DNA of 63,664 nt, counting the filler, from Bonamia ostreae (taxonomy: Eukaryota), in NCBI GenBank assembly GCA_040357525.1. It is 21 parts of 21 records of this genome, joined end to end, with 100 filler letters (N's around TTAATTAATTAA, not from the genome) between each part and the next. Parts side by side here need not be neighbours in the genome. Positions count along the whole stretch, not along the records: positions 21,426 to 24,371 come from JBDODL010000636.1; 20 more parts are not named here. One strand, 5' to 3'. A program made the position numbers and the translations under genes. Shown here one piece after another: positions 1,033 through 54,524 of this stretch. Within the stretch, counting starts at the first letter, position 1. Each line of letters starts with the position of its first letter. The notes under the pieces were generated by a model. The model was not told where the DNA came from, did not search any database, and worked only from the letters and a program-made list of their open reading frames with translations.

Positions 1033-1263
1033 TCTGTGATGTTTTGTGTACAACAAATTTTGTCAGTTTGAAGATACATTATTTCGGGGTTACAGAAAAA
1101 GGCTTTAGAATATAGAAGATTAGAAAATTAAGATATAATAAATAGCAGTTGTAAAATGATCTATTTTATAAAACATAGACTTTAGTTTTCAGTCTAAAAT
1201 TAGTTATTTTCAACATCATTAAAATAAACAAAATTAAAAATTTTTCATATAAACAGTTTTAAA

Positions 1264-1924
1264 ATGCAAAAGGAAGAAAAAAGAGAAAAGGAAATATTGA
1301 ACAAATCAAAAAACGAAGAAACGAAAAAATTGAACAAATCGAAAAGTAAAGTAACTAAAAAAATGAAAATAGCGAAAAAATCTAAAATCGAAGAATCGAA
1401 TAAAGAAAAAAAATCAAAAAACAAAAAATTGAAAAAACTAAAAAACGAAAAATTGAAAAAACCAAAAAACGAAAAATCGAAAAAATCGAAAAAACCAAAA
1501 AACGAAAAATTTGAAAAATCAAAAAAATCGAAAAAACCAAAAAACGAAAAATTGGAAAAATCGAAAAAATTGAAAAAACCAAAAAACGAAAAATTGGAAA
1601 AATCGAAAATAATAAAAAACGAAAAATTGAAAAAATCGAAAATAATAAAAAACGAAAAATCGAAGAAACAAAATAAAATCGAAAAGAAAACAAATAATAT
1701 AATCAAAAAACCAAAATTCCAAAAACCGGGACAGAGATTTAAGGAACCAGACCAAGTTTGCTATTATCTAAAACAAATTAAATAAGAACGACTCTTTGTT
1801 AATTTTTTACGGCTCTCTAAGAAAACAAATTCCTGAAAGCAAAATGGCTGAAAAATGGCTTTTAACACACGGATGTTTACCAGAAAATGAAGCGAAAAAT
1901 GTCTTTGAACGACTAAAAAAATAA
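1264..1924 (+). CDS. Lys-rich repetitive protein with a conserved small C-terminal domain; 31-nt intron at 1756-1786
   Basis: KKPKNEK repeats; splicing gives PGQRFKEPDQNDSLLIFYGSLRKQIPESKMAEKWLLTHG, resembling a conserved eukaryotic uncharacterised domain. Confidence 0.7.
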
Positions 1925-6215: not shown

Positions 6216-9010
6216 TCAATTGTCATTGTCGATCTTGTCAAATTCGGCAAAATCCGGTTCCGGCGAAACAGAGTCGCCCAATTTTTGTTTCTTGTCAGAT
6301 TTTGGGACCTCCACCAAATTTTTTTCGTCTCTTTTGGGATCCCTCACTCTTTTCCGACCAGAATCGTTGTCAATCTGGTCAAACTGATCAAAATCGACTT
6401 CCGGAGAATTACTGACAAAGTTGTGGAATTTGCCAGAATCGCCGCTTCTAGACAAGCCATTTTTCGCAAAGTTTTTCTGACTGTTCCAATTCCTGTTTCC
6501 GTCGTTAAAGTCGCGTTCAGATCGTCTGTTGTCATGTCCTGTGCGACTTCTGTAACTGTTGTTGCCATATCCTTCCGAGTTGTTGTGACCAAAATTGTTG
6601 CCGCGGCGATCATAGTTTCCTCGGCGACCGTAATTGCTTTTCTCAATGTGACTTCTGTTTTGAGGGCGTTTGTAGTCGCCGTAATTTTTTGACTCGTTTT
6701 GAGGGCGGTTTGAATAACCGCGAGGAGATGGTCTACTGAATTGGTGTTGTGGTTCCTGATATCTTGGCGATTGCTTCACATTTTTATGGCTATTTTCAAA
6801 TCTTCTGTTGTCAAAATTTTTCTCGTTTCTTCCAAAATTTCTGTTGACATTTTCATAATTTCTTTTCGTAAAATTTCTGTGACTATCATCATCAAAATTT
6901 TTGTTGCCGCTGTAATAGCGGTTTGGCTGTTGATATCTTTGACTAGAGTTTCTACTGTCGAAATCGACGCGATTTCTAAAATTGGCTCGTCGGTTATTGT
7001 AGCCGTCGTCTCTGTCGTGATTTCTAGAGTGCTCGTTTCTGTTGTAATTTTTGGGGGCACTTTTCCTTTTCACGTAAGGGGAGTTTTCGTAAGGGTGACT
7101 TTTGAACCAACTGACCAAACGATCGGCCGACTTGAAGACTTTGTTTCTGAATCTTTTTTCAGGCATTTTAGAACAATAAGAGAATTATTTCAAATTAGGA
7201 TTATGTAAAGCTTAATGGATATGTAATATATGCTGATTTGTTAATTTTGTGGGGAACTTTAGTCCGTTAGGAACGACGATGATGTACTCCTTTTTGACGT
7301 TGACGTTGAAGATGTAGAAGATGATGAGACAACCGGGATGTTTTTGGGACAGACCGATTCCGTAAGGAATTCTGGACGGGTCGTCTCTTTTTTCCGCGGT
7401 CACCATTTCTTCGACGTTTTTTTCGGTTCCGAATCGGAAACTTTTGAACTTTATCACTTCGTTTATTCTTGCCGTCATTTTCTCGAAAAATCTTGAATTT
7501 GTAATTAGTGACTGTTTTATGCCAAAATTTACAAAAATTGCGAAAATTATCACCAAAATAACGATAAAAAACAAAATTTAGGTGAAAATATAAAAATAGC
7601 AAAAAACAAAATTTAGGTGAAAATATCCAAAATAATTTATAGAAAATAACAAAAATAGAATTTAGCTAAAATATAGAAATATAACGGAAAATTAATTATA
7701 CAAAATATCGAAAAAAACGAAAACATTAATTCAGGAAAACGAAAAATAATGAAAAACAAGATTCAGATAAAATATAAAATTTAGTAGAAATGAATAAAAA
7801 TATCGAAATATAGAAAATATAAAAATATCGATATAAAAAATAAAATTTAAAATATAATTTTTATATAAATATTATTTAAAATAAAATATCGAAAATATAA
7901 AAACAAAATAAAGATTTTAATATAAAAATATCGAAATAAAATTTAGTAAAAATGGCGAAAAAAAAATTGAACAAAAATACCGAAAATAAATTATAAACAA
8001 AATTTAAACACCAAAAATAAAATAAAAATGGCGGAAATTTAGAACAACAAAAAATAAAATATAAATTTAGGTGAAAATATAAAATAAAAATGGCGAAAAA
8101 TATAAATTACAAAAATATCGAAAAATAAAATTAACCAAAAAATTTTGGCCAAACCTTGCATAGATCTCATCCAAATCCTCAAATTGCAAATTGCTAATCT
8201 CCAACAAACGGCCGACACTGAACGAATTCGGTTTGTTCTTTTCCTTTATCTCAATGTTGGCGCAAATAAAAGGATCTTTGAAAATCTTCCAAGTTGCAGT
8301 AAGGAAATTCGGTCCGCGTGTACTTGGGCGAATGACCAAACTACCCGTTTCCTTGTCGCGCAGATAGTTCTCCGCTTCGACTCTGGTCACATTTTTGAAG
8401 AACGGGAAATCGATTTTCCGCGCGACAAAAGTCGGCTTTTTGCTTTCCTTTTCGTCTTCCGATTCTTCTTTTTCTTCTTTTGTGTCCAAATATCGGTCCA
8501 ACCGTTTCGGCAAATATAATTTTTCTTTGTTTTAGACAAATTTTGTTATTTTTGCGATCGATTTATTGTTGTTTTAAACAAATTTTGAAAATTTTTGTAA
8601 TTATTTTGTCGCCATTTTTATACAAATTTGATTTGAATAAATTTTTGTACAGCAAATCAAACCTGGATTTTCGAGACTTTTGTCTTCAACACAATCTTTT
8701 AAAGCGTTGAGAAAAATCGAGAATTTTCCTTTTTCTTTTGAAAAGTCAACAACACGAGCTTTTATCGTTGTTCCAACAGGCACTTTTCTTTTAATCACTG
8801 AAATTTTGTCTTCGGAAGTGTTGAGGTCGTCCCACGACAAAAGATGTTCGAATTTGATAACGCCGAGGACATTACAGTCCAATTGGCACAAGACGCTTTT
8901 GTTTGTGTGGGCTACTACAGTCGCAGCGAGTAATTGACCGGGGTGGAGTGTTTGAGGGGATTCACATGTTATTAACCAAAAAAGTTCTTCGTCTGATAAT
9001 TTCTTGTATT
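6216..9010 (-). CDS. SPT6: Transcription elongation factor SPT6, 3' part (S1 domain, tandem SH2, R/N/G-rich tail); multi-exon
   Basis: FPFFKNVTRVEAENYL...VIRPSTRGPNFLTATWKI; FEDLDEIYARF; PSRIPYGIGLSQKHPG; FRNKVFKSADRLVSWFK. Confidence 0.92.
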
Positions 9011-20336: not shown

Positions 20337-20593
20337 AAAATCAAACGAAATATTTATGTAATTTGAACGTAACTACTATATAGTTATTTTTTAATAAAAG
20401 ATCTTGAAAAATGACGGAAAATATATATTTTCAATAATTTAGAACTGGCAACATTTTCTTAAAATATTTTTTCTTCGTTAACAAAATTGTTAAAATTTTT
20501 TATTTGTTAATAATATTTTTATATTTATGTCCCAGACTTAACTTTGTTCGGATATTATTAAAACCGCAAAATCAACCGCAAAATATTAAAAAA

Positions 20594-21049
20594 ATGAACA
20601 CGATTAATATTATAATATTGTTCCAAATCCACTTTTTGCTCTTCGCAAAATTTTCTTTATCGTCGAATTCAACTATTTTAAATAATTCTTGTCCGTTGCC
20701 AAAATTGACTGAAGATCAAACTTTCAAAAAAACGACTACAATTTTTAAAGATAAATCGACGAAAACATTATTCTGCAAAGAAAAAAAATTCTACAACAGC
20801 GCCATTCGTTACAATGTCTTTGAAAAGAAGATTTTGTGTGATGTGGAAAAACAAAAATATTTTGACGTTGAAAATGGTCAAAAATACGATTTTGAGAGTA
20901 CTGAAATTTGTCATTACAGTTATATTTTGGTTTCCTGCACTTTTATTTCGGTCGCTTATAGTCTCCTTAATTGTCTAAATTTATGTTTTTTATTAAATAA
21001 ATTTTTCTATTTAGATTACAATTTCGTTTTTATTTATAAATTGTTATAA
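20594..21049 (+). CDS. Putative type-I membrane protein with one Sushi/CCP-like Cys module
   Basis: Signal peptide, CPLP..C..C..C spacing, C-terminal hydrophobic segment; 3' end may be spliced. Confidence 0.5.
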   Translation: MNTINIIILFQIHFLLFAKFSLSSNSTILNNSCPLPKLTEDQTFKKTTTIFKDKSTKTLFCKEKKFYNSAIRYNVFEKKILCDVEKQKYFDVENGQKYDFESTEICHYSYILVSCTFISVAYSLLNCLNLCFLLNKFFYLDYNFVFIYKLL

Positions 21050-21780
21050 TTTGCTTAAATTACAAAATAAATATAAAAAAGTGAGGCTTTATTTTAAAAA
21101 TGTTTTATTGTTCAAATTTTAAAGAATAATGAAGAAAATAATAATGACAATCAAAATATTGTTTTTTATAAAAATTAAAAGGAAATGGAAGTTTTATAAA
21201 TTTATTAAAAACGAAGAATTTGAATGCTCAGCAACAACAGCCATCGAATGTTTTAAATAAAAATCGAATTAATTTTAATAAACTTAGATTCCAGATGTTT
21301 TTAAATTAAGCGAACTTTAAGAATCNNNNNNNNNNNNNNNNNNNNNNNNNNNNNNNNNNNNNNNNNNNNTTAATTAATTAANNNNNNNNNNNNNNNNNNN
21401 NNNNNNNNNNNNNNNNNNNNNNNNNTTTAATAATGTTTAAAAATATTTAAAAATAATTTAAAATTTTTGACAATTATCTCTTACGATTAAAAATTATGTG
21501 TACGCAAAAATATAAAATGGAAGATAAATTAATCTTTTAAAATTTCAAAATAAATAAAAGAATTTGAAATGTGTGGGATTTGAGAACTTGAAATATAATT
21601 TTGAAAGGAAAAGGATTAAAAAATATTAAAAGGAAATGGGAGGAGAAAGACAATGTTCCTTGTAATTTATGATAAATGTCTTGAATATATTATAACAAAA
21701 ATATTATTTAGTAATTTAACATTTCGAATACTATAATTATAACAAAATATTCCGAAAAATATAACAAAACGGCAAATTTA

Positions 21781-22112
21781 ATGACAAAATATTATTTGTC
21801 AAAATTGGCTTTGTTGTTTCTGATTAAGTATTTCCAAGCTAACTATATCATTGATGATCCATCGCCTTGTTATAGCTATAACCAGGAAGTGTGCAATGGT
21901 TTAACAAAATGTTACTGGGACAGTAGCGACAATTGTGGAAGTTGTTAACGATTTTTACAAAAGAGTGTGAATACGAGTGCGAATATAGTTATTCGCCCGT
22001 TTGCGGCTCAGATATTATTTTTTACGCTAATTTGTGTGTCTTTGAAGTCGAAAAGTGTACAAGAGCTGATTTACATTATTCTACTGTCGACTTTAGACTC
22101 TGTGAAGAATAA
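21781..22112 (+). CDS. Secreted Kazal-type serine protease inhibitor A (102 aa; intron 21941-21963); P1 = Tyr
   Basis: Spliced product ...NCGKCEYECEYSYSPVCGSDIIFYANLCVFEVEKCTRADLHYSTVDFRLCEE with all six Kazal cysteines. Confidence 0.9.
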
Positions 22113-22176
22113 AACCTTATTCCTTAAATTTTGAACAAAATAACTATTTTATTTTAACAAACACAAATTTTATTTT

Positions 22177-22491
22177 TCAGTTTTGGGGATCACAAATACC
22201 CCTTTTTTTCACTTGCAAATCTTCTCCACTGTAACATTTTCTTAAATTAAGGTGACATTCATTATTATAAGAAATATTGTCACTGCCGCAAACCGGATAG
22301 AAAAATTTTAAACAATTATCTTTGCACACTTTAGAAAACTATAATAAAAAATTACCGCCGCAATTTTTTTCTAAATCCCAACAGCAAAGCGGGTTACTGT
22401 CACAAATCACTTTCTCGTCTACAAAACATTCTTCAAATTTTGTGCTTTTGATAAACGCCATGCACAGCAATAGTATATATTTTTTAACCAT
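22177..22491 (-). CDS. Secreted Kazal-type serine protease inhibitor B (95 aa; intron 22329-22355); P1 = Lys
   Basis: Spliced product ...NCGVCKDNCLKFFYPVCGSDNISYNNECHLNLRKCYSGEDLQVKKRGICDPQN. Confidence 0.92.
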
Positions 22492-51989: not shown

Positions 51990-54524
51990 CCAACGTAATA
52001 ATGACAAAAACCGTCCGCGGCGTCAACTTTGTACTTCTCAGACAAAAAGTAGTTGAGCAGAAACGGCGTGTTCGAAAGGCACTTTATTTTGCCGTAAAAA
52101 CCTGTATTGCAGAGTTCATATAACAGGTGTTCCCCAGATTGCGCAGTCCCGTAATCCCTTTGATGCTGCTGTCCTTGTTGTCTCTTCTAGACTGTGGCGG
52201 AATTTTTAAAAATTGTGGTGTTTTTGATTTTGTTTGTTCATAAAAAAAATAAACGTGTGTGAAAGGCTCGGCCAAGACCTTATCACAAAAACAGTAAGAA
52301 TCGATGCATCCACAAAGCAGATCTTCGTCCGAAGAAGCCGAATTTTTTGGCACTGCGAACTGCTCCTTCTTCTTTTCCAGATCTGCTAGAATAACAGAAT
52401 CGGCGTCGATTCTGACGATTTTGGCCAAAATCCTATTTTTTCGATTTTTTAAAACCATTTGCTTCCGATTTTGAGGTCGACCAGACTTCCTATTTTGAAA
52501 CGCCAATTGTTCAGAGAGTCCAAGAATTCTCCGAACTACTTTTGAAAAATAAACTTTGTCGGTTTCAACCAAAACATCTTCGGAAATGCCCAGATCCTTC
52601 AGCGAGACGTCTCCTTTTTCTTCCGACAATTCGGCCCAATCTTTTTCAAAACGGAAGGCGCCTTTCTGCTCTCTCTCGAACGCAGAGACGTTTTCCGCCT
52701 CAAACCTTTGGTCGACCGAGTCGTTATCCGTGAAATGGCTGTCCTCGCAATAAAACGAATCCCTGTTTTGCGATTCCGTTTCGGAATTCGCGCCTTTCTT
52801 GGTGTACGTTGCTTCTGGCAACAATGTCCATTTCGAGTCGGTTTCTCCCTTTTCCGAAATTCCGACTTTTTTGCGAACCCAAAATATTGCATTTGGACGA
52901 TTCTTTTCGTTCTTTTGCGTAAAACTGAAAACCGCTTTCGCGAATTTGGAGAACAAGTTCGACGCCGTTCTTCGGTCGCTCATTCTGATTTCCGCCAAAA
53001 TCCGGGGCACATTTTTGGAGTTGACTTTTACAAATCGCAAACAAAACGGCTCCAGAATATCCACTTTTTCGGTTCCACGTCGACGAAGCGCTTGTTCTCT
53101 TCGGTGACCGCGCAAAATGAAGGCGACGGATCGCCCCCGTAAATGACGGCCAGTTTTTCTTTAACCGCCAGTGGCACTAGGACGGAATTGTCGAGACATT
53201 GGAAGGCGCCTTCCGAGAAAGCGATTAGCGGCGGTTTCGGGAAAAAATTGTCTTTCATCTTTTGTCTGTCCAGTCGGGGCAGAATCAAGTGCTTCAATCT
53301 CGTCGGGCGCACTAACGGCTCTTTTTCCGCGAAAGTCGTTTGTTGGTCAACAGCGCTTTTTTCGTTATCCGTTTTGTCCTTCTCGTCCCGGAATCCGGTT
53401 TGAAGGAAGTCTTCGTACACTGCGGAATGTTTGGAAGACAGATTTTGAGTAGTGTGGGAGAGTTCATTGCTGGAAGCGACGCTTCTGCTTCTGCTTATTT
53501 CCTTGCTGTAAAACGTTTCTTCGTTCGAAGTCTCCGACAAATTCTGCGAAGACGCCATTTTTTTGACCAATTGCCCTTTTTCCAAATCTTTCGAACCAAA
53601 ATTAGTGTAGTTGGCCCAGTCTTCCCACCATTCTTTGTCAATGAAAGCCCTTTTCGTTAAAATTTTTGTCAATGAAAAACCATTTGCTGCCGACGTTAAG
53701 TCTGCGCTGGTTTTTCAGGATGGAAACAACGAGCTGTTTCTGCGATTCGCGGGGAATCACAAAATTGAAAGAATAAAAAAGTTCGTCGAAAACGTCGCTA
53801 ATAAAATTTTCGGCCGATTCGATAAAGTTGACATTGGACAAATATTTCTGAATTGTCGAAAAAACTTTTTTGCGCGACGTTTTGGATTGCGAGGACGACT
53901 TTTTGGCGAAGCGGTCGACTTCTTTGATTTTGTGTCGTTTTTGTTGTGTCGAATAGACGTTCGATTTTGCAATGACGCGTTTGGAGGCGATCGCGATATC
54001 GGCGACTTGGCGGCGACTAAGAAACGCGTCGCCGTTTTGGTCGAACAGGAAAAAAATGACTTTATTTGAAAATCCAAACATTTGCTTTTTTGCGATCTGT
54101 TGTTTCTGAAGACATCCATTTTCATCAAAAATTTGCAGAAAGATAGGAACCCCGTCCGAACGCTGTTCATAAAAGACGTTCTTAGTTTTTCGAGGGCATA
54201 ATAGGGAAACTGCTTCTCGAAATCTGAGTTGAAAATCCTTTTTATCTCCTTTTTGGATTTTTTGCTGCCAGCTTAAAATTATATGTGGTTATATCTAAAA
54301 TGTCAATGGGCGAAAATGCCGAAGTTTGGTTTCGAAAAATGAAAAACTGATTTTGCTGAACAGTTTATAGAGTTCATTGATTTCGTAGCCGTTGTCTTAA
54401 AGTTAGTTGGAAAACAAAAAGTTTCTTTTTCGACCAAACGTCTATCCGCGTATGAAAGACCACTCTCGTGCGACGTACTCAATTGCTTTCCATCGTTAGT
54501 TACCATTGAATTAGTACCTCCCAT
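51990..54524 (-). CDS. USP32-like deubiquitinase (myristoylation-type MG start, EF-hand, DUSP, Cys box), 3' truncated
   Basis: [61 protein letters not shown]. Confidence 0.85.

Follow-up and report, generated by a model that had tools for sequence, protein, structure and literature searches.

Tail-to-tail pair of small Kazal-domain genes with tiny introns and different predicted P1 residues

Gene models and splicing of the convergent pair

Two small genes, referred to here as A (plus strand) and B (minus strand), lie tail to tail at positions 21781 to 22491 of a 63,664-nucleotide stretch of DNA assigned to Bonamia ostreae (the whole stretch that was analysed is called the window below). Each consists of a first exon, which codes for a hydrophobic N-terminus and a four-cysteine motif (the pre-module), and a second exon, which codes for a Kazal domain; the coordinates are given in Table 1. 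When the exons are joined and read with the standard code, the coding sequence (CDS) of gene A is 309 nt long including the stop codon and specifies 102 amino acids, and that of gene B is 288 nt long and specifies 95; both lengths are multiples of three. The initial annotation had described a convergent gene pair with stop codons 64 bp apart, and coordinates, translations and joined CDS all agree with this description. A tiny phase 1 intron had further been placed at the same position, after N-C-G, in both genes. By sequence this is exact: the intron site is identical, in phase 1 of the codon after N-C-G, one residue ahead of the first cysteine of the Kazal domain (Cys-I). For gene B, reading by eye turned up no splice other than the one proposed that would maintain an open frame into the Kazal exon.

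Six-frame regular-expression scans of all 63,664 bases found the complete Kazal cysteine pattern at genes A and B only. The pre-module motif, searched for as C, 5-9 residues, C, 4-7, C, 0-2, WD, 2-5, C, was likewise found at these two genes only, so the shared pre-module C-x7-C-x5-C-x-WD-x3-N-C-G that had been reported for the pair is indeed present in both genes and unique in the window. Since the two Kazal exons, arranged tail to tail, share the site of a tiny intron, a hydrophobic N-terminus and a four-Cys motif, we regard the arrangement as not being due to chance. Genes of this kind, coding for small proteins predicted to be secreted and carrying introns of 23-27 nt, escape annotation based on open reading frames (ORFs), and yet they can be recovered and checked.

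Contigs from four sequencing runs were placed on the 1.1-kb stretch between positions 21600 and 22700. Runs X2, X3 and X4 are DNA, and X5 was taken to be RNA by guess. An X5 contig of 329 nt, with a depth of 31.5, spans positions 21763-22114 and omits exactly 23 nt at position 21941, while contigs from all three DNA runs read through the site of intron A ungapped. Since X5 lacks the 23 nt that the DNA contigs keep, it follows that a spliced form of gene A with the predicted borders exists. There is no ATG ahead of 21781 in the spliced contig, which begins at 21763, and the first ATG is the predicted start of gene A. The contig stops 2 nt past the gene A stop codon; contig ends do not show where transcripts truly end. 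Gene B was not covered by X5 contigs, from which no statement on its expression follows. Of the two introns that were to be confirmed by RNA, intron A is thus supported by the presumed RNA run X5, and intron B is not.

Over the same 1.1 kb, the X2-X5 contigs contain three single-base differences, all of them within gene B. Two, at 22225 and 22309, are synonymous, and the third, at 22451 (in X2), corresponds to I14T in the signal region. No frame-breaking change was seen in the contigs across this stretch.

As the genes converge on it, the 64-nt spacer must hold the 3′ ends of both. AATAAA hexamers are present at 22108-22113 on the plus strand, overlapping the TAA of gene A, and at 22174-22169 on the minus strand, beginning 2 nt past the TGA of gene B; given the AT-rich DNA, they may have arisen by chance. 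Compared with the window, two very short contigs of X2, of 32 and 48 nt, lack 3 nt at 22160, in the spacer, and one of them continues into 16 unlike letters at 22145.

Table 1. Features of the convergent gene pair (positions along the window)
Feature	Position	Strand	Details and basis
Gene A exon 1	21781..21940	+	Hydrophobic N-terminus (about aa 1-20) and 4-Cys pre-module; translation, motif scan
Gene A pre-module Cys30, 38, 44, 52	21868-21939	+	Translation, motif scan
Gene A intron	21941..21963	+	23 nt, GT..AG, phase 1, in-frame TAA; missing from X5 contig
Gene A exon 2	21964..22112	+	Kazal Cys-I to Cys-VI at 21966-22103; Pfam, PDB sequence matches
Gene A P1 Tyr61 codon (predicted)	21984-21986	+	Alignment to ovomucoid
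Gene A stop TAA	22110-22112	+	Sequence
AT-rich spacer between stop codons	22113..22176	.	64 nt; sequence
Gene B exon 2	22177..22328	-	Kazal domain at 22326-22192; Pfam, AlphaFold2 model, Foldseek
Gene B stop TGA	22179-22177	-	Sequence
Gene B P1 Lys53 codon (predicted)	22308-22306	-	Alignment to ovomucoid
Gene B intron (predicted)	22329..22355	-	27 nt, GT..AG, phase 1; position and phase as in intron A
Gene B exon 1	22356..22491	-	ATG at 22491; hydrophobic N-terminus (about aa 1-16) and 4-Cys pre-module
Gene B pre-module Cys22, 30, 36, 44 and extra Cys37	22428-22357	-	Translation, motif scan

Kazal domains, reactive-site loops and paralogy

The second exons of both genes pass the Pfam cut-offs for two Kazal families. 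Exon 2 of gene A scores 30.0 bits with Kazal_2 (cut-off 22.8) and 27.4 bits with Kazal_1 (cut-off 21), with an E-value of 5.6e-7, and exon 2 of gene B scores 37.2 and 36.7 bits, respectively, against the same cut-offs, with an E-value of 3.2e-9. The claim that each gene contains a complete six-Cys Kazal domain is therefore upheld by the Pfam hidden Markov models (HMMs). In both proteins the six cysteines stand in the Kazal order, with the spacing C-x3-C-x7-C-x10-C-x6-C, and the Tyr and Asn ahead of Cys-IV are kept, within Y-A-N-L-C in A and Y-N-N-E-C in B. With Cys-I three residues before Cys-II and Cys-V six residues after Cys-IV, the spacing would place A and B in non-classical group I, in which Cys-I is close to Cys-II, Cys-V is shifted C-terminally and the 1-5 disulfide is displaced (PMC3082530, partial text).

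A representative protein library was searched with a profile of the two exons, and 3855 proteins were retrieved at E ≤ 0.001. The best 150 of these 3855 are all long multi-Kazal proteins with 4-29 matched stretches each, so no orthologue of A or B could be singled out among them. All seven of the matched proteins that were scanned with Pfam score for both Kazal_1 and Kazal_2. A search for homologues among longer proteins with the second exons of A and B gave no candidate sharing three words, which is weak evidence that the spliced proteins and close relatives are absent from the collection searched. In a metagenome scan with exon 2 of gene B, 2 out of 124 pattern matches passed. One of them, L001, is a contig of 1212 nt with at least three consecutive follistatin/agrin-type ten-Cys units at 356-1137; since the units sit in two frames, an intron probably separates them. 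L001 contains a Kazal part that is 45% identical to that of gene B. The contig was rejected as a source of a gene B orthologue, being an animal-type gene with tandem follistatin-type (FS) domains. The other match, L002, covers 15 residues only and was dropped as spurious.

Sequence searches of the PDB retrieved, for exon 2 of gene A, the elastase inhibitor of Anemonia sulcata (AEI; 1y1b) as the best single-domain match (E 2e-4, residues 1-35). For exon 2 of gene B, a domain of agrin (8s9p) was at the top with 30.1 bits, follistatin (2p6a) scored 24 bits, and FSTL3, rhodniin and ovomucoid were also matched.

The fold of the gene B Kazal part was modelled by AlphaFold2 using a 35-row alignment made up of the two exons and 33 shorter profile matches; a run with two rows was unusable (pLDDT 38.8). 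The model has a pLDDT of 92.9 and contains strands at residues 12-14 and 39-42 and a helix at residues 23-33. When it was submitted to Foldseek, 104 matches were obtained at E ≤ 10, nine of them at E ≤ 0.001, and the matches listed, with TMq values of 0.63-0.90, comprise only Kazal inhibitors and follistatin-type modules. The classical Kazal inhibitors among them are a SPINK2-derived inhibitor with KLK4 (6kbr; TMq 0.88, root mean square deviation (rmsd) 1.0 Å), the ovomucoid third domain (OMTKY3) with elastase or chymotrypsin (1ppf, 1cho; TMq 0.79-0.80, rmsd 1.3 Å) and SPINK1 (TMq 0.82-0.84). FSTL1 (6jza) was matched with a TMq of 0.90 and an rmsd of 0.8 Å, and infestin-1 with trypsin (2f3c) with a TMq of 0.84 and an rmsd of 1.0 Å. 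As modelled, the second exon of gene B has the Kazal fold.

In HMMER alignments, the segment C-E-Y-S-Y-S-P-V-C of gene A falls on C-T-L-E-Y-R-P-L-C of the ovomucoid third domain (1yu6_C, 144-166). Residues 2-27 of gene B fall on residues 13-38 of 1ovo_A, with C-L-K-F-F-Y-P-V-C occupying the same columns as the loop of A. As can be seen from the alignments to ovomucoid, SPINK1 and AEI, Cys-II is located at P3, and P1 follows two residues on; for the ovomucoid third domain, we take P1 to be Leu18. Since the loops align with this domain and Cys-II corresponds to P3, the predicted P1 residues are Tyr61 in A and Lys53 in B. The alignment columns thus agree with the initial annotation, which had assigned Tyr and Lys to these positions. 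The cysteine before the reactive site is described as P3 and P1 as the residue that dictates the specificity of Kazal inhibitors (PMC3082530, partial text), and a central role of P1 is also stated elsewhere (PMC1192801, partial text).

Seven residues separate Cys-II from Cys-III in both loops, P2′ is aromatic (Tyr in A and Phe in B), and Pro-Val stands ahead of Cys-III. G-S-D follows Cys-III, and further on there is Y-x-N-x-C, with an Asn two residues before Cys-IV. In ovomucoid, the Asn ahead of Cys-IV braces the reactive loop. At the five positions from P2 to P3′, A and B have no residue in common, yet they agree fully in the flanking P-V-C-G-S-D; variable contact positions beside kept flanks are, reportedly, the usual Kazal pattern (Laskowski).

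Loop length, the combination of an aromatic P2′ with Pro at P4′, and the P1 column are common to A, B and classical Kazal domains. The cysteine spacing, in contrast, is different: Cys-I of A and B is three residues before Cys-II (seven or more in classical domains), and Cys-IV and Cys-V are six residues apart (2-3 in classical domains). The spacing C-x3-C-x7-C-x10-C-x6-C is the same in the non-classical group I inhibitors AEI, crayfish PAPI-1 (its domains) and horseshoe-crab CrSPI-1 (PMC3082530, partial text). The reactive loop has the form x-x-x-Y-x-P-V-C-G-S-D in common with this group. Unlike PAPI-1 and CrSPI-1, which contain several domains, A and B are single-domain proteins. We know of no report of an extra four-Cys N-terminal module in AEI, PAPI-1 or CrSPI-1.

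The relationship between the two genes was assessed by BLAST among 151 other entries (150 Kazal proteins and the paralogue). With the pre-module included, B is the best match of A, and A is the fourth match of B; the two align ungapped with 53.5 bits and 22/56 identical residues. With the Kazal parts alone, which give 33 bits between A and B, the mutual ranks are 122nd and 148th out of 151, the pool proteins offering many domains each. Taking into account the reciprocal high rank obtained with the pre-module and the identical position and phase of the intron, we consider A and B to be paralogues. In a block of 56 codons, the nucleotide identity is 86/168, pS is 0.89 (saturated) and dN is 0.59; since synonymous sites are saturated, the split must be old. 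A search for an inverted DNA repeat between genes A and B produced only short AT-rich matches at chance level. An inverted duplication is thus plausible but invisible in the DNA, no inverted repeat being left. The proposal that such a duplication had diversified the pair is accordingly only partly retained: the intron site and the identity of the proteins make a duplication plausible, but the divergence itself does not show adaptive diversification.

Predicted function and alternatives

The presence of signal peptides was judged by hydropathy, using the highest Kyte-Doolittle mean over nine consecutive residues of the N-terminus. This mean is 3.27 for gene B and 2.18 for gene A, and two Lys are found among the first eight residues of each protein. 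Since 14 of the 177 ORFs of the window (read from the first Met) reach at least 2.6 in their N-termini, the N-terminus of gene B is unusual on this measure, and that of gene A is not clearly so. A signal peptide had been assigned to each protein; by hydropathy, gene B has the strong hydrophobic core expected, and gene A is a weaker case. Secretion of both proteins is plausible. The mature proteins would be acidic, with net charges of about -10 (A) and about -3 (B).

We consider it probable that A and B act as standard-mechanism serine protease inhibitors, A with a preference of the chymotrypsin/subtilisin type and B with a preference of the trypsin type. According to the mechanism we envisage, the two old paralogous genes would give rise to small secreted proteins, with mature parts of about 80 residues, in which the Cys-II to Cys-III loop would occupy the active site of the protease in a substrate-like manner, with the P1 side chain filling the S1 pocket. 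For A, whose predicted P1 is Tyr, the expected targets are enzymes like chymotrypsin, subtilisin or cathepsin G; for B, with Lys at P1, they are trypsin-like. Such a mechanism is a textbook one, and A and B are real genes but ordinary members of a well-known family, the pre-module being the remaining point of interest. The suggestion made at the outset that host proteases, and haemocyte proteases in particular, are the targets is not supported.

Several points weigh against inhibitory function. The Kazal-type modules of follistatin, FSTL1 and agrin match gene B as well as true inhibitors do, both in sequence and in fold, and many such modules are binding domains, not inhibitors. The hydrophobic core of gene A is short (seven residues), and its mean of 2.18 compares with 2.14 for an internal stretch of the protein; the argument for secretion, plausible as it is, is one of hydropathy. 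Finally, since there are 11 cysteines in the mature part of gene B, one of them (probably Cys37) would be unpaired, or else the pairing differs.

The alternative that each mature protein is a single FS unit (an EGF-like four-Cys hairpin followed by a Kazal part) that would bind a growth factor, a matrix component or a surface ligand, and would not be an inhibitor, appears unlikely to us, although a number of observations are in its favor. Gene A has ten cysteines, with the spacing C7C5C7C2C3C7C10C6C14C, in what we take to be the order of an FS unit, from general knowledge and from FS-like units seen in the database matches and in L001. An HMM of 61 ten-Cys units, which come from 11 of the 150 Kazal matches, matches A at residues 35-88 with 35.0 bits and B at residues 27-91 with 40.6 bits, and in both proteins the alignment starts at model position 3 and extends through the pre-module. 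Gene B can be aligned ungapped over 68 residues, 21 of them inside the pre-module, with the FS-like unit of one database protein (P0107). The agrin, follistatin and FSTL3 matches at the top of the PDB sequence search, the place of FSTL1 among the best fold matches and the tandem FS-domain architecture of the metagenome relative L001 point in the same direction. In FS domains of known structure (2p6a, 6jza, FSTL3 and 8s9p), the ten cysteines come in the same order, and the Kazal sub-domain is very similar to that of B.

In the pre-module, C, C, C, W, D, N, C and G are invariant between A and B. Against the FS reading, with an HMM of the N-terminal hairpin of FS domains (FOLN) alone, A and B score between -2.7 and -1.5 bits, below chance ORFs of the window, and, in contrast to true FS domains, the pre-module taken alone thus has no detectable similarity to FOLN. 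Relative to the FS consensus, its fourth Cys lies one position off. No Pfam family, FOLN or other, was found in either first exon at E ≤ 1; the Pfam and FOLN negatives are weak, because FOLN was found in none of the seven scanned proteins that carry FS-like units. A feature search of the ESM Atlas with the pre-module gave no usable match. The loops of A and B, moreover, have the seven-residue length and the motif of inhibitors, the producer is not known to be an animal, and, whereas FS domains belong to multidomain matrix and growth-factor-binding proteins, A and B are single small proteins predicted to be secreted. The pre-module may nevertheless represent a follistatin-type hairpin that has diverged very far and occurs outside the multidomain context in which it is usually found.

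We consider it quite improbable that A and B are Kazal-fold antimicrobial or toxin-like peptides that mainly kill or disable microbes, prey or host cells instead of controlling proteases stoichiometrically. Kazal peptides are named among the venom and toxin-like components of cnidarians, antimicrobial activity is reported for CcKPI1, a Kazal inhibitor of a jellyfish (PMC12767216, partial text), and an antimicrobial activity of TgPI-1 is described in a preprint (10.1101/2025.11.28.691165, partial text). In these cases, however, the activity is paired with protease inhibition, so that it represents a use of the same mechanism more than a rival to it. In addition, the acidic charge of mature A and B is unlike that of typical cationic antimicrobial peptides, and the content of the window provides no link from the genes to a venom apparatus. 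Decay of one or both genes into duplicates without function is very improbable. Gene B has no RNA evidence and an odd number of cysteines, and the Kazal parts are strongly diverged; yet the reading frames, the splice sites and all Kazal consensus residues of both genes are intact despite saturated synonymous sites, two out of three substitutions in gene B are synonymous and none is disruptive, and gene A was found in a spliced form.

As predicted secreted protease inhibitors, A and B can be compared with those of other eukaryotic microbes. The initial annotation had referred to secreted Kazal inhibitors of Toxoplasma and Phytophthora, and such proteins are on record as TgPI-1/2 and EPI1/EPI10, respectively (PMC1192801, partial text); EPI1/EPI10 act against the tomato subtilase P69B (PMC1192801, partial text). 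Like A and B, these are secreted Kazal proteins, or predicted to be so, whose domains differ in P1 (PMC1192801, PMC3082530, partial texts). However, TgPI and EPI proteins are chains of two to four domains, some of them with two disulfides only (PMC1236909, partial text), whereas the specificities predicted for A and B would reside in two separate convergent genes. A literature search on Kazal genes in myxozoa, Myxobolus and dicyemids found no work devoted to such genes in the texts available in part. "Putative Kazal-type serpins" are mentioned in the partial text of one paper only as excluded from a data set (PMC7650755); another describes Kazal peptides from other cnidarians, and myxobolid toxin-like proteins without Kazal among the classes named in its partial text (PMC12767216).

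A bolder extension of protease inhibition, which we regard as speculative and unlikely to hold in full, is that the pre-module and the Kazal part form a lineage-specific five-disulfide architecture, an FS-like unit working as a true inhibitor, in a highly reduced parasite with ultra-short introns, for instance a myxozoan-like animal, and that the convergent pair is a two-specificity cassette secreted against trypsin- and chymotrypsin-like proteases of the host. If true, this would be a first entry point to Kazal-based interference with the host in highly reduced parasites with ultra-short introns. Should the producer live as a parasite or in a gut, the pair of Tyr-P1 and Lys-P1 proteins would be a simple candidate for protection against chymotrypsin- and trypsin-like proteases.

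The window around the pair

The window has a G+C content of about 31%, with values of 0.22-0.23 at 18-22 kb. About 25 further housekeeping loci with Pfam support were recognized, including those of Rad21, ERO1, Spt6, HSF, kinases, a DEAD helicase, USPs, a PP2A-A-like HEAT protein and ODC, and the gene density is roughly one per 2.4 kb or denser. A neighbouring prolyl-hydroxylase (P4H)-like ORF has a best database relative that is 57% identical. A feature search with a fragment of the PP2A-A-like protein pointed no further than Eukaryota. The window yielded neither an Rfam match nor telomere repeats. It uses the standard code, its long ORFs ending with TAA 23 times, with TGA 13 times and with TAG 4 times. 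Ciliate-type codes were rejected, as gene A ends with TAA (the spliced contig stopping 2 nt on), gene B ends with TGA, and all three stops are used by the long ORFs.

Among animals, ultra-short introns combined with the standard code are reported only for myxobolid myxozoans and Dicyema, as far as the partial text of the source goes (PMC13644364). According to the same text, Henneguya salminicola has a GC content of 29.1% and a median intron of 27 nt, and the median intron is 22 nt in Thelohanellus kitauei and Myxobolus rasmusseni. The GC content of Dicyema japonicum is 36.7% (PMC6736024, partial text), and mikrocytid introns are of 16-17 nt only (PMC10245619, partial text), for which reason mikrocytids were rejected. 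Dicyema japonicum and myxobolids were kept as candidate producers, a myxozoan-like reduced animal being favoured with low confidence; the window, however, is much more gene-dense than is implied by the genome-wide averages for Dicyema japonicum and myxobolids.

Just upstream of gene A and in the same AT-rich stretch, an ORF at 20438-21049 (plus strand) has a strongly hydrophobic N-terminus following its first Met, several cysteines, a hydrophobic C-terminus and no Pfam match; it may code for another secreted or membrane protein. Runs of 44 N occur in pairs about every 3 kb (40 runs, plus two runs of 10 N; 1780 N in total), one pair being located at 21326-21425, about 350 nt upstream of gene A; these pairs look like masking and not like assembly gaps. 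At 52000-54300, where the local GC rises to 0.44, long overlapping ORFs are present on both strands around a USP/UCH-type gene. An ORF at 1228-1785 (plus strand) is Lys-rich and of low complexity, with repeated units of the K-S-K-K-P-K-N-E-K type. In the Spt6-like gene (7490-8147, minus strand), the adjacent SH2_2 profile positions 114 and 112 sit about 650 nt apart, which implies that this gene has either a large insertion or a long intron, the other introns of the genome looking tiny.

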